Below, piece after piece: positions 3,500 through 6,878 of a DNA stretch of 24,000 nucleotides; within the stretch, counting starts at the first letter, position 1; each line of letters opens with the position of its first letter. The translations under genes and the position numbers were made by a program. Location: assembly GCF_014349205.1 (NCBI RefSeq), contig NZ_JACSOF010000032.1:1-24000 (forward strand). Reading direction: 5' to 3'. Below the pieces are notes generated by a model. The model searched no databases. It was not told the origin of the DNA and saw only the letters and a list, made by a program, of their open reading frames with translations. This stretch comes from Photobacterium sp. BZF1. Lineage in GTDB: Bacteria > Pseudomonadota > Gammaproteobacteria > Enterobacterales > Vibrionaceae.

Positions 3500-3754
3500 A
3501 TGAAAGTTACTTCTGCCACCCAACTCAGTCATTTACTGCAAGAAAGTCGCAAAGAACAAGGCTTATCACAGTCGAATACCGCCCAAAAAGTAGGGATCCG
3601 GCAGGACACAGTATCCAAGTTCGAAAATGCACCGGAAGGCACCCGGCTTGATACCTTATTTAAATTGCTTGCGGCGCTCGATCTGGAATTGGAAGTCCGC
3701 CCGCGCGGTGAACAATCTAACTCCAACAGCGAACAATGGAATGAGGAGTGGTAA
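3500..3754 (+). CDS. hipB: HipB antitoxin, XRE-family HTH transcriptional repressor
   Basis: The 84-aa protein has an HTH core, QGLSQSNTAQKVGIRQDTVSKFEN. The acidic C-terminal tail ends in ...EQWNEEW; a C-terminal Trp also ends E. coli HipB (...QQNLEW, from memory). It lies directly upstream of hipA once the IS is removed. Confidence 0.88.
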   Translation: MKVTSATQLSHLLQESRKEQGLSQSNTAQKVGIRQDTVSKFENAPEGTRLDTLFKLLAALDLELEVRPRGEQSNSNSEQWNEEW

Positions 3755-3755
3755 T

Positions 3756-3960
3756 TGACATCCTCCCCCGCCTAGCTTCGCTTATTTCGGCGGGGGATTC
3801 CCTGTTACTGGGTGCACACTAAATTGCTTTAGTGACTAGTTCCTGCTGCTGGCGGCATTGTTGCACCACTCACTGCACAGGCTAACAAGCGGTGTACCCG
3901 CTCTAATATATTTAATGCACCAACAATATCTGCGTTGTTGGTGTAACCACACTCAACACA
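3756..3960 (-). ncRNA. candidate omega RNA of the IS605-like element; the 5' limit is a guess
   Basis: Hairpin CACTAAA-GCAA-TTTAGTG (minus-strand reading of 3817-3834) has a GNRA tetraloop and overlaps the tnpB stop codon. The RE hairpin follows at 3764-3797. The element ends at 3756, so a read-out guide would be the reverse complement of the hipB 3' end. Confidence 0.5.
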
Positions 3961-5031
3961 TTCAAAGTGCGCTTGAGTTTGGCGGTTATCTTTCGACACA
4001 TGACAACAGCAAGGGCATGTTTGGCTTGTGTATTGCGCTGGGACAGCTATAACGATGCCTCCATTCCATTGCTGCTTATACTCAAGTTGTCGCCTAAACT
4101 CATACCAACCCTGATCTAGGATTGACTTATTGAGTCCTGATTTGGCCTTGACGTTCTTGCCGTGCTCCTCTGAATTACCTTTCGCTGACTTGGACATATT
4201 TGATACCCGTAAATCCTCTATCGCTATCATTGCGTGATTCTTGCTGATCTCGGAAGATGATTTGTGAAGGTAGTCCTTGCGGCAGTTGGCGATACGAGTG
4301 TGCAGCTTCTGAATTTTCGCCTTTTGTTTTTGCCAATTGGCAGAGAATTTGACCTTGCGAGTTAACTTGCGCTGCTCCGTAGCAAGACGCTTCTCATGTT
4401 TACGAAAAGCGTTAAGCGGCTTTAGGTGTGAACCGTCAGATAGCGCAACAAACTTTGATATGCCAACATCAACACCCACGGCAGATGTGGAAATATGCTT
4501 TGGCTCAGCTATTTCTTGCTCAACCTGAAAGGATATATACCAGTACCCCGACTTAAAGCTCACTGTGCAGTTTTTAATTGCTACTTGCACCTCTTGAGAC
4601 TTACGGAACTTCACCCAACCTAGCTTACTAGGCAACTTCACACGATTGCCTTCAAGCAGGCAATACTTGTTGAAGTTGACGAATCGGATCGAGTCTTGGT
4701 TCTTGCCTTTCTTCTTAAACCGAGGTTTTTCAGCCGCCAGAGATTTATCAAAGCAACGCATCCACGCACCATGTAAGTCTTTTAGCTTTTGCTGCAAGTT
4801 ATCGGTGTAGGCTTCCTTGAGCCACGCTAGATCTTCTTGCTTTTTCCACTGGGTCACTAGCTTATTAAGCTCAAAGGCGCTTGGGATCTTTTCGCCAGCA
4901 TCCAGCTTGTCTAAGCAGTGACGCAAGCCTTGATTCCACACAAACCGAGCATGACCGCAAAGCACAGCAAGCCTAGCTACCTGATCGGCAGTAGGCTCTA
5001 ATCTGAATTTATAGGCTTTGCGTATCAACAT
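3829..5031 (-). CDS. tnpB: TnpB RNA-guided endonuclease, 400 aa
   Basis: The N-terminus is canonical: MLIRKAYKFRLEPTADQ. The RuvC motifs are GVDVGI, IAIEDLRV and NADIVGALN. The zinc ribbon is CPCCCH...CVECGY. Confidence 0.93.
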   Translation of the reverse strand: MLIRKAYKFRLEPTADQVARLAVLCGHARFVWNQGLRHCLDKLDAGEKIPSAFELNKLVTQWKKQEDLAWLKEAYTDNLQQKLKDLHGAWMRCFDKSLAAEKPRFKKKGKNQDSIRFVNFNKYCLLEGNRVKLPSKLGWVKFRKSQEVQVAIKNCTVSFKSGYWYISFQVEQEIAEPKHISTSAVGVDVGISKFVALSDGSHLKPLNAFRKHEKRLATEQRKLTRKVKFSANWQKQKAKIQKLHTRIANCRKDYLHKSSSEISKNHAMIAIEDLRVSNMSKSAKGNSEEHGKNVKAKSGLNKSILDQGWYEFRRQLEYKQQWNGGIVIAVPAQYTSQTCPCCCHVSKDNRQTQAHFECVECGYTNNADIVGALNILERVHRLLACAVSGATMPPAAGTSH

Positions 5032-5097
5032 GACAAATCGGTGTGCTTACGTATAATACCTACATAATATGAACTTAAGTGAGTAAGATCAATATCA

Positions 5098-5505
5098 GTG
5101 TGCAATGTCAACAAAGGGCGGAACAGTTGCTATTCAATGCACTTGCATATCGTGTTTATCACCAAATATAGGCGCAAGGTCTTTGGTGAATTACACCTGC
5201 AAAATTTAGAAGCTACATTCAAAGAGTTGTGTCTGGCATTTGATGCAGAGTTGAAGGAGTTCAACGGTGAGTCAGACCACGTTCACCTGTTAATTTCAAC
5301 ATCACCGAAGACACCAAGTGTCGCAAAGTTAGTTAATTCACTCAAAGCAACTAGCTCACGTAGGATACGCAGAGAGTTTAATGATGTGGCTGGCGCATTT
5401 AGTAAAAACGTTCTTTGGAGTCGTAGCTATTTCGCAGGAACGTGCGGAGGTGCGCCATTAACGGTGATCAAACAATACATCGAGCAACAGGATAGGCCGC
5501 ATTAA
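5098..5505 (+). CDS. tnpA: IS200/IS605 Y1 (HUH) transposase TnpA
   Basis: Motifs present are HLHIVFITKYRRKVF, the HUH motif in SDHVHLLIS, and the C-terminal catalytic Tyr region WSRSYFAGTCGGAPLTVIKQYIEQQ. The start is a GTG. A TATAAT at 5052-5057 lies in the 66-bp divergent spacer. A small hairpin GATGC-tgc-GCATC followed by TTT sits after the stop. Confidence 0.9.
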   Translation: MCNVNKGRNSCYSMHLHIVFITKYRRKVFGELHLQNLEATFKELCLAFDAELKEFNGESDHVHLLISTSPKTPSVAKLVNSLKATSSRRIRREFNDVAGAFSKNVLWSRSYFAGTCGGAPLTVIKQYIEQQDRPH

Positions 5506-5570
5506 GATGCTGCGCATCTTTGGCTATTCCCCTCCCTGCTGCTTCGCAGGGAGTACCCTAGCCATTTAGG

Positions 5571-6878
5571 ATGGTGGCGATGAATGGCTACGAAGTAGGC
5601 ATACTGCACCAGTCCCCCACCGGTGCCCACCGCTTTCACTATTCACCAAGCTGGCTTGATACTCCCGGGGCGCGACCTATTTCGTTGTCGCTGCCACTTG
5701 GCCGGCGTCCTTTTCATGGCGAGGCAGTCTATAACTTTTTCGATAACCTGCTGCCGGACAATATGCAGATCCGCCAACGCATTGTTGCCAGACATCAGGC
5801 CAAATCCAGTCAGCCATTTGATTTGCTGGCCAAGATCGGCCTCGACAGCGTCGGCGCATTGCAGATCTACCCGTTGGACACCAATCCTGGCGATGTACGG
5901 CACATTAGCTGCAAGCCGCTGGATGACAGTGCGTTGGTACGCATCCTCAAGGGTTACCAAAGTGATGCCCCGCTAGGCATGATTGCCGAAGAAGATGACT
6001 TTCGTATATCCCTAGCTGGTGCCCAGGAAAAAACCGCCTTGCTACGCAGGGATAACACCTGGTGCCTACCGCAGGGCAGCACCCCGACCACCCATATCAT
6101 CAAGTTACCGATTGGCGAGATCCAAAGCCATTCCTATACCATCGATCTTGCCGAGAGTGTCGAGAATGAACTGGTGTGCCTTCGCCTTGCCAAAGCGTTC
6201 GGGTTGGCGGTTGCCGAGGTCGATATGCTGAATGTGAGCGATGTTAGGGCGTTGTCTGTGTCGCGCTTTGATCGCCGTGAATCCAAAGATGGCCTGTGGA
6301 TCATGCGCCTGCCGCAAGAAGATTTTTGCCAGGTACTCAATGTCTCTCCGGGTCGTAAATACGAGGTCGATGGCGGCCCAGGTATTGCAGAAATTATGCG
6401 TTATCTTCTGGCTTCGGAACAGCCAGATGCCGATCGCCGTGAATTCATGCGCGCTCAGGTCCTATTCTGGCTACTCGCGGCGACCGATGGCCATGCCAAG
6501 AATTTCTCAGTATTTCTTTTGCCCGGCGGTGCCTTCAGGCTGACACCTTTGTACGATATTTTATCTGTTTACCCAGTGATGGGTGGCAAGGAGTTGTCGG
6601 AGCGAAAAGCCAAGATGGCCATGGGCCTGTATGGTGAATCCGGCCGTCACTATAAATGGTATTCATTGTTCCCCCGTCACTTCTTGGCCACGGCTCGGGC
6701 GGTGGGGTTTTCAGAGTCAACGATGCAGCAGATCTTGGATGAATTCCGCGATCGTGCTCCAGAAGCTGTTGAGAGCGTGCGTGCACCTTTGCCTGATGAT
6801 TTTCCCCACCATATCAGCGACGCTATTTTGGGCGGGGTGCTCAAGCGGGCACGCCGGTTGGGTAGCGAACACCCGTAA
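5571..6878 (+). CDS. hipA: HipA serine/threonine kinase toxin; native start codon split by the IS
   Basis: Strong collinear similarity to E. coli HipA (from memory): ARPISLSLPL, FFDNLLPD, SQPFDLLAKIG-DSVGAL, FRISLAGAQEKTALL, TPTTHIIKLPIGEI, RLPQEDFCQ, KYE-DGGPGIA, ATDGHAKNFSV, LTPLYDI and PRHFLATA. The listed ATG at 5571 is 4 codons downstream of the reconstructed native ATG (A3754, T3755, G5561). The in-frame codon at 5559-5561 is now TAG. Confidence 0.92.
   Translation: MVAMNGYEVGILHQSPTGAHRFHYSPSWLDTPGARPISLSLPLGRRPFHGEAVYNFFDNLLPDNMQIRQRIVARHQAKSSQPFDLLAKIGLDSVGALQIYPLDTNPGDVRHISCKPLDDSALVRILKGYQSDAPLGMIAEEDDFRISLAGAQEKTALLRRDNTWCLPQGSTPTTHIIKLPIGEIQSHSYTIDLAESVENELVCLRLAKAFGLAVAEVDMLNVSDVRALSVSRFDRRESKDGLWIMRLPQEDFCQVLNVSPGRKYEVDGGPGIAEIMRYLLASEQPDADRREFMRAQVLFWLLAATDGHAKNFSVFLLPGGAFRLTPLYDILSVYPVMGGKELSERKAKMAMGLYGESGRHYKWYSLFPRHFLATARAVGFSESTMQQILDEFRDRAPEAVESVRAPLPDDFPHHISDAILGGVLKRARRLGSEHP

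Follow-up and report, generated by a model that had tools for sequence, protein, structure and literature searches.

In the first 24,000 nucleotides of contig NZ_JACSOF010000032.1 of Photobacterium sp. BZF1 (this whole stretch is called the window here), the two genes of a hipBA toxin-antitoxin (TA) locus are separated by a complete insertion sequence (IS) of the IS200/IS605 family. The explanation that best covers the observations as a whole, and that we regard as very likely, is the insertion of this IS605-type element at hipBA, with ends at 3755 and 5570, together with loss of the native start of hipA. The right end of the element directly abuts the hipB stop codon (TAA/TTGACATCC; here and below a slash within a sequence marks a boundary) and its left end abuts ATG GTG GCG of hipA. 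The genes concerned and the element itself are the following:

3500-3754, plus strand: hipB, an intact gene for an 84-amino-acid antitoxin of the Xre type with a helix-turn-helix (HTH) domain (Pfam HTH_3, E=8.5e-11)
3755-5570, minus strand: complete IS200/IS605-family element, IS605 type, 1816 bp, with divergent tnpA and tnpB
3829-5031, minus strand: tnpB, intact, 400 amino acids, RNA-guided nuclease family (Pfam HTH_OrfB_IS605, OrfB_IS605 and Cas12f1-like_TNB)
5098-5505, plus strand: tnpA, Y1 HUH transposase (Pfam Y1_Tnp, E=1.7e-38)
5571-6878, plus strand: hipA open reading frame (ORF), 435 codons (Pfam Couple_hipA, E=1e-25, and HipA_C, E=1.1e-55)

An earlier note on this DNA, made from its letters, had already placed an IS200/IS605 element between hipB and an otherwise intact hipA. 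Gene calls and Pfam domains bear this out. The hipB gene ends with TAA at 3752-3754, its product has the length of the HipB of Photobacterium rosenbergii, and its ratio of non-synonymous to synonymous substitution rates (dN/dS) is 0.11. The 435 codons and the kinase motifs that the note attributed to hipA were likewise found in the ORF: ISLAGAQEKTAL, DGHAKNFS and TPLYDI are all present and conserved with respect to homologues. The protein is 96% identical to the uninterrupted HipA of P. rosenbergii (P0001, 439 amino acids), with a dN/dS of 0.07 at a dS of 0.34. In the window hipB and hipA lie 1816 bp apart with the oppositely oriented tnpB between them, and they do not show the stop-to-start adjacency of an operon.

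Both genes of the element look intact. OrfB_IS605 proteins are RuvC-like nucleases with a zinc finger, and the TnpB encoded here can be aligned over its full length with the TnpB proteins of Vibrio and Shewanella (dN/dS 0.18). In TnpA, which counts 135 amino acids if read from the GTG at 5098 or 122 if read from the ATG at 5137, the Y1_Tnp match spans 2-121 of the 121 profile positions. Alignment with the Vibrio and Shewanella TnpA proteins shows the HUH motif (DHVHLL) and, near the C-terminus, the tyrosine (KQYIEQQ) in place. With these motifs in TnpA and an undiminished TnpB ORF, the element looks like an autonomous and intact IS605-type member, as judged from its sequence.

The limits of the element can be read from copies found elsewhere. 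In a reference-genome scan, Shewanella sp. Isolate7 proved to carry one (L010, 35-1849) that aligns end to end with 3755-5570 at 97.6% identity, and megablast detected three copies of about 80% identity, each in a different context, on plasmids of Vibrio casei and Vibrio rumoiensis. The Vibrio plasmid and metagenome copies are about 79-80% identical to the window IS. In the junction alignments the common sequence runs from TTGACATCC (3755) to CCATTTAGG (5562-5570) and is followed by ATGG, with flanks that differ beyond. A metagenome scan yielded 14 further left ends, all 14 with ATGG directly after them. In total, CCAT precedes the element on the top strand (that is, ATGG follows it) in 19 of 19 copies, made up of five full copies and these 14 further ends.

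An empty site is also available. Plasmid 1 of V. casei (L015) reads ...GATATTAATT/ATGGCTAAAC... (TTAATT/ATGGCT), and a V. rumoiensis locus (L003) carries the IS between those two halves, with zero duplication and zero loss. When the window is compared with uninterrupted hipBA by blastn, homology breaks off at 3757 and resumes at 5570. Since the copies share their ends in unrelated contexts, and since the L015/L003 pair provides the empty site, we define the element as 3755-5570. The sequence GCCATTTAGG (5561-5570) is terminal in all 19 copies and missing from the empty site; it is the tip of the transposon and not hipA DNA. Another copy gives similar information: in L031 the homology of the left-end flank to an intact helicase gene begins exactly at ATGG. 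For the copy on V. casei plasmid 2 (L004), whose relatives are only about 80% identical, no exact empty site emerged, and homology begins near ATGG, within 1-3 nt. A target of five nucleotides, CCATC, was considered and rejected: the guide rule described below fits CCAT, and the empty site puts the additional C inside the IS. Exact-sequence look-ups of TnpB, HipB and HipA returned only contig SRR4299675_126, and neither a second copy nor an empty allele of the same lineage was found in this way.

Several of the copies have features of their own. L031, on metagenome contig Ga0114983_1004023, is 97.5% identical to the window IS and has chimeric flanks: that at the left end consists of the last 114 helicase codons, 98.9% identical to a Shewanella algae plasmid, and that at the right end is unrelated to this gene. 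This could be the result of a large adjacent deletion or of recombination between two IS copies. L029 (5645-7009 of metagenome contig SR_TP_S13solDRAFT_1000033) is a 1364-bp derivative of the Vibrio lineage. Its two ends are intact, but about 450-500 bp are missing internally, corresponding to positions 1266-1750 of the window IS counted from its right end, where tnpA is located. It is probably non-autonomous. Finally, a solo perfect palindrome, CCATCCTAAATGGCTAGGGTACTCCCTGC-tgcttc-GCAGGGAGTACCCTAGCCATTTAGGATGG, is present in scaffold89 of Shewanella sp. Isolate7 (L009, 430-510). It is formed of two facing left-end tips with CCAT/ATGG at each side, lacks an associated transposase gene, and may be what an aberrant transposition or a snap-back event left behind.

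The 3' end of tnpB faces the left side of the window, and the transposed ('top') strand is therefore the minus strand, with the right end (RE) at 3755 and the left end (LE) at 5570. The tnpB stop (3829) lies 74 nt from the RE, towards which the 3' end of the gene points. The signals at the two ends are as follows:

3755-3800, minus strand: right end, with the guide GAAT at 3797-3800, a hairpin formed by CCCCCGCC and GGCGGGGG at 3765-3796, AGGATG, and the TCAA cleavage site at 3755-3758
5520-5570, minus strand: left end, CCAT/CCTAAATGGCTAG, with the guide GGTA at 5554-5557 and a hairpin formed by CTCCCTGC and GCAGGGAG at 5532-5553
5571-5574, minus strand: target and cleavage tetranucleotide CCAT (ATGG on the plus strand), outside the element, as read from 19/19 copies, the empty site and the hipBA alignment

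Terminal inverted repeats are absent, and GC-rich subterminal hairpins of 8-9 bp occur at both ends (predicted folds of single-stranded DNA, z=-2.8 for the RE and z=-3.2 for the LE). At the RE, 10 nt separate the hairpin foot from the end of the element; at the LE, the foot of the hairpin lies 17 nt away from the point of cleavage. The RE structure is kept in all full copies and the LE is identical in 19 copies. The hairpins are also kept in the Vibrio copies, where the differences in the RE stem are compensating.

These signals can be read with the rules established for IS608, in which the right guide is GAAT, the cleavage site TCAA and the hairpin-to-end distance 10 nt (PMC5934647, PMC3201880). 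Its left guide, AAAG, pairs with TTAC, the published pairing being A+16:T-3 and A+17:T-4 (PMC5934647, PMC3201880). By inspection, GGTA placed in the same register (G+16:C-3, G+17:C-4) predicts C-C-x-T, and CCAT is what is observed. The element illustrates cleanly how the IS608 guide/target code applies to another target, with CCAT as the reading of GGTA. In the window, the ATGG at 5571-5574 contains the ATG of ancestral hipA codon 5, which is now the first ATG of the ORF. The insertion would have proceeded by the single-strand 'peel and paste' route, which in this family passes through a circular single-stranded intermediate: TnpA would paste the minus-strand element 3' of CCAT, recognised by the GGTA guide beside the left-end hairpin. 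On the hipA strand this CCAT corresponds to the ATGG of codon 5.

Two other readings of the target were examined and set aside. If the plus strand were transposed, with TTGAC as target, two changes would be needed to account for the hipBA junction; this reading also conflicts with the guide/cleavage rule and with where tnpB has its 3' end. A preference for sites just upstream of start codons (CCAT being the complement of ATGG) is not supported: a long in-frame ORF starting at the ATG is found in only about 6 of 19 copies. The hipBA locus itself holds 12 ATGG sites on the hipA strand. The arrangement of the tnpB 3' end and RE is compatible with an omega-RNA, the guide of which would then be taken from the 3' end of hipB.

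Uninterrupted relatives show what the junction between the two genes looks like without the IS. The closest HipA (P0001 of P. rosenbergii) begins MADLMVAMNGYEVG and has the N-terminus MADLMVAMNG, and other close homologues start with MADL, MANL or MAQL. Three loci (L006, L007 and L008) read ...GAGGAATGGTAA ATG GCT GAT TTG ATG GTG GCG ATG AAC..., with ATGGCTGATYTGA following GGTAA. The uninterrupted junction is GGTAA/ATGGCTGATTTG/ATGGTGGCG, in which hipA starts directly after the hipB stop without a TAATG overlap. More generally, the N-termini of HipA homologues follow the pattern M-x-x-L-x-V/I-x-MNG. Exactly seven residues precede MNG in 107 of 122 homologues (those where the anchoring motif could be located), and the leucine at position 4 is mostly conserved. 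In the window the IS stands in place of the 12 nt ATGGCTGATTTG, which comprise the native start codon and three further codons (MADL). If the locus arose by insertion with loss of the native start, the corresponding IS-free allele would be expected to carry the junction TAA/ATGG(CTGATTTGATGG)TGGCG.

The consequences for hipA depend on what lies upstream of it, on either side of the element:

3413-3493, plus strand: hipB promoter/operator-like region, with three tandem copies of TTAACGG-N5-(C)CGTGT(A/T)AA at 28 nt spacing
5030-5092, both strands: divergent promoter-like region, with ATGACA-16 nt-TATAAT on the plus strand (5030-5057, 11/12 consensus positions) and a second site on the minus strand (5092-5064, 9/12)

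As the earlier note had it, hipA is parted from hipB and from the promoter and operators; the distance is 1816 bp. It is cut off from the region 3413-3493 and from the Shine-Dalgarno sequence GAGGAG at 3743-3748 (in the 3' end of hipB), and it has lost its start codon and hipB adjacency. The in-frame TAG that the note saw ahead of hipA is also there, at 5559-5561. Each direct-repeat copy at 3413-3493 holds the palindrome ACGG-N5-CCGT (TTAACGGCCATACCGTGTAAA and variants), and a promoter-like site at 3436-3463 overlaps these repeats upstream of hipB; the repeats are probably HipB operators, and we treat them as putative. All promoter-like sites given here are matches of a sigma-70 consensus scan only. 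The in-frame ATG codons that remain in hipA are those at 5571 (Met5) and 5580 (Met8). Met5 is without a usable Shine-Dalgarno sequence, and an AGGA at 5568-5571 lies 8 nt before the ATG at 5580. Gene callers are split between the two, one taking 5571 (P0125, 435 amino acids) and another 5580 (P0121, 432 amino acids). NCBI lists HipA proteins identical to this ORF under Photobacterium sp. BZF1. Taken together, this arrangement makes it reasonably likely that the HipA toxin is silenced or strongly attenuated.

Low-level expression of hipA driven from tnpA is possible and is the main alternative. For this, transcripts from the tnpA promoter would have to read through into hipA and translation would have to begin at Met5 or Met8. 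Such read-through is possible because tnpA is co-oriented with hipA, 65 nt upstream of it, a promoter-like site lies ahead, and a scan for terminator-like sites between tnpA and hipA found none. The outward-reading IS promoter suggested in the earlier note has thereby gained a candidate, the site at 5030-5057 with 11 of 12 sigma-70 consensus positions, which reads towards tnpA and hipA; its minus-strand counterpart at 5092-5064 reads towards tnpB. In its full form, this alternative holds that hipA has been rewired and not silenced, with translation starting at Met5 or Met8 with the help of the AGGA contributed by the IS left end, so that a low level of toxin would follow the transposase and no longer HipB autoregulation. 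The AGGA 8 nt ahead of the ATG at 5580 and the fully intact hipA ORF would suit it. However, a recent neutral insertion would leave the ORF just as intact, members of the IS200/IS605 family typically express tnpA at very low levels, and the left-end hairpin and a predicted RNA helix lie over the start region. In that fold TAGCCATT (5559-5566) pairs with AATGGCTA (5581-5588) and brackets both AUG codons. We consider the rewiring of hipA unlikely.

The pairing just mentioned has a feature of its own. The hipA codons AATGGCTA, 15 nt downstream of the IS tip TAGCCATT, match its complement perfectly, and a 10-bp helix is predicted that has the two candidate start codons within it or at its base. 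The hipA side of this pairing contains one mismatch in P. rosenbergii (AACGGCTA), so the complementarity is probably a coincidence.

With hipA silenced or attenuated by the insertion, as we prefer, any HipA made by leaky expression could be neutralised in trans by HipB, which would still be produced from its own promoter. IS200/IS605 elements excise precisely. Precise excision by TnpA would here give GAGGAGTGGTAA/ATGGTG (TAA/ATGGTG), that is, a re-coupled operon encoding a HipA without MADL. The locus would represent a natural case in which a persistence toxin has been uncoupled from its antitoxin, potentially in a reversible way, with an intact kinase ORF now placed behind a transposase gene.

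The missing 12 nt require separate consideration. On the ancestral top strand the sequence is ...CACCAT/CAAATCAGCCAT/TTACC..., and the IS now stands between the first CCAT and the sequence after the second. The lost segment ATGGCTGATTTG spans exactly the distance from one target site to the next, is in frame and has ATGG/CCAT at both bounds. A second case is provided by the copy on V. casei plasmid 1 (L002, 1474-3279), which sits in a galR-like gene. The intact galR allele (P0126; L012/L013, 1640-1780, with flanks about 100% identical) reads ...CAAACT/ATGGGAGTA...GGTTCG/ATGGTAAAGG.... In the interrupted allele the IS occupies the place of a 45-nt segment that has ATGG at its start and a further ATGG after it, the top strand being CCAT/C...CCCAT/A. 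The same IS also inserts cleanly, as in L003/L015 and in L020, whose joined ORF aligns gap-free to homologues of equal length. The 12-nt loss in hipA and the 45-nt loss in galR suggest, from comparison of the alleles, that deletion from target to target recurs and is linked to the transposon.

Several routes could lead to this. TnpA might, in a side reaction, cleave the RE or the second CCAT and join it across the interval to the flank beyond, which is possible, as are two insertions at adjacent targets that collapse by recombination. Replication slippage on the 5-bp repeat GATGG, made at the LE junction, could have the same outcome. For the window only, the 12-nt deletion could also be older than the IS. 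Our tentative view is that an undescribed side reaction or obligate by-product of the IS may have left the 12-nt gap as its footprint, in which DNA between neighbouring CCAT sites is replaced; we give this somewhat less than an even chance. In the literature searched, of which coverage was incomplete, deletions adjacent to the element or from target to target were not found described for the IS200/IS605 family. If driven by the transposase, target-to-target replacement would give this family a new means of deleting host DNA.

The last of the routes amounts to a different history of the locus, in which the 12-nt loss is older than, and unrelated to, the IS. The allele would already have read TAA/ATGGTGGCG, for example after slippage on the ATGG repeat, and the element would then have inserted cleanly at the only CCAT left, precisely between the stop of hipB and what was at that time a working hipA start. 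An older loss yields an identical final structure, the 12 nt are in frame with a direct ATGG repeat on both flanks, and clean insertions of this IS do occur (L003/L015; L020). Against this, only this same allele starts with MVAMNG among the homologues seen, seven residues before MNG being the rule (107/122), and the independent galR copy in V. casei has the same geometry, with 45 nt between two CCAT sites, which makes coincidence less likely. We hold this older, unrelated loss to be rather improbable.

The reconstruction put forward in the earlier note, in which the IS runs from 3756 to 5560, splits the hipA start codon and on removal leaves a TAATG overlap and a HipA beginning MPFRMVAMNG, does produce an in-frame ATG seven residues before MNG (the modal length among homologues) and recalls the MPKLVTWMNN start of E. 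coli-type HipA proteins (P0003, P0015), but it is almost certainly wrong, given that every one of the 19 IS copies terminates in GCCATTTAGG and the empty site lacks it, that the closest uninterrupted relatives have MADL and not MPFR, and that position 4 is mostly Leu and never Arg among the displayed homologue N-termini. Its ends are off by 1 and 10 bases from the real ones, 3755 and 5570, as given by the 19 copies, the empty site and the IS608 rule. Elements of the same family with ends other than 3756/5560, which the note itself had named as evidence that would speak against it, do exist, and its reconstruction is refuted. The element lies 3' of CCAT, opposite the ATGG of codon 5, and the start codon is absent, not split. 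The overlap was an artefact of the chosen ends, relatives having TAA and then ATG without overlap; the MPFR came from transposon bases where relatives have MADLMVAMNG, and the match in length arose by coincidence. The comparison with uninterrupted hipBA relatives that the note had recommended gives the junction TAA ATG GCT GAT TTG and not the one proposed.

Some points weigh against an IS605-type insertion with loss of the hipA start, or against parts of it, and they are collected here. Silencing, leaky expression and activation of hipA are not separable from sequence alone. The hipA gene shows no decay, yet its dN/dS of 0.07 mainly reflects the history before the insertion. The hipBA loci used for comparison share no more than 86-90% of their DNA sequence, so either event may have come first and the 12-nt loss could predate the IS. 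The functional weight of the lost MADL is unproven, as RefSeq begins HipA at Met8 in uninterrupted P. rosenbergii as well. The hipA of L007 (6001-7320) is annotated in GenBank as 439 amino acids with a start that abuts the hipB stop (P0001) and in RefSeq as 432 amino acids from Met8 (P0122). Because these calls differ for the same gene, automated annotation of the HipA start must be considered inconsistent. Finally, a search for omega-RNA or any other Rfam family gave zero matches, both over the whole window at the gathering threshold and over 3600-5700 at E<=5.

The surroundings of the locus are consistent with a mobile origin. Homology to the P. rosenbergii hipBA region is limited to 3399-7083 of the window, and hipBA has a G+C content of 53.5% versus 42-45% in the flanks. 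In P. rosenbergii the module lies in a plasmid-like locus and adjoins Rep3, ParA and ParB genes; in the window it adjoins an integrase gene (7967-8926) and a second tnpB-like gene:

1912-3303, minus strand: second tnpB-like ORF, adjacent tnpA absent (Cas12f1-like_TNB, weak OrfB_IS605)

This ORF encodes 463 amino acids if read from a TTG, or 413 as called elsewhere. It ends about 100 bp from the start of the hipBA homology (3399), and hipBA is therefore bracketed by two TnpB-type elements. DNA similar to the second of these (query 1400-3500) was not found in a search of the plasmid collection. Positions 11347-18186 of the window are 92% identical to a 2.06-Mb replicon of Vibrio campbellii, while positions 1-11000 are not. 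Judging by these comparisons, the hipBA module looks horizontally mobile, and hipBA, the integrase gene and the two IS elements together look like an island.

Among known systems, the closest to the element is IS608 (ISHp608) of Helicobacter pylori, which also combines a Y1 HUH TnpA with a TnpB and has subterminal hairpins without inverted repeats. The right guide GAAT, the TCAA cleavage site and the 10-nt distance from hairpin to end are identical in the two. Both insert 3' of a tetranucleotide without duplication, and in both the target is read by four nucleotides 5' of the left hairpin. They differ in the left guide and target (GGTA and CCAT here, AAAG and TTAC in IS608) and in the distance between the cleavage point and the left hairpin (17 nt here, 19 nt in IS608). 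The divergent layout of tnpA and tnpB is that of IS605 and IS606; in IS608 the two genes are co-directional. The strict short target and the position of the TnpB 3' end towards the RE (omega-RNA architecture) are shared with IS605/IS606 and with ISDra2 of Deinococcus radiodurans, but the target sequence differs, that of ISDra2 being TTGAT (PMC5934647).

The interrupted locus resembles hipBA of Escherichia coli in that an Xre-HTH HipB precedes a HipA kinase composed of Couple_hipA and HipA_C domains. Conserved in the kinase are the Gly-rich loop motif of autophosphorylation, DGHAKN as catalytic motif and YDI as Mg-binding motif. Unlike the E. coli operon, it is split by 1816 bp and its native hipA start codon is gone. 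The E. coli HipB operator is TATCC-N8-GGATA, and the repeat sequence at 3413-3493 differs from it. We are dealing with an apparently un-named new member of a well-known IS family in a well-known TA operon, and the event is an ordinary one. As in IS-mediated inactivation or uncoupling of toxins in TA loci generally, expression of the toxin is disrupted and the antitoxin is left intact, which is the selectively permitted direction. Unlike the general case, both ORFs are intact here and the disruption is in principle reversible.

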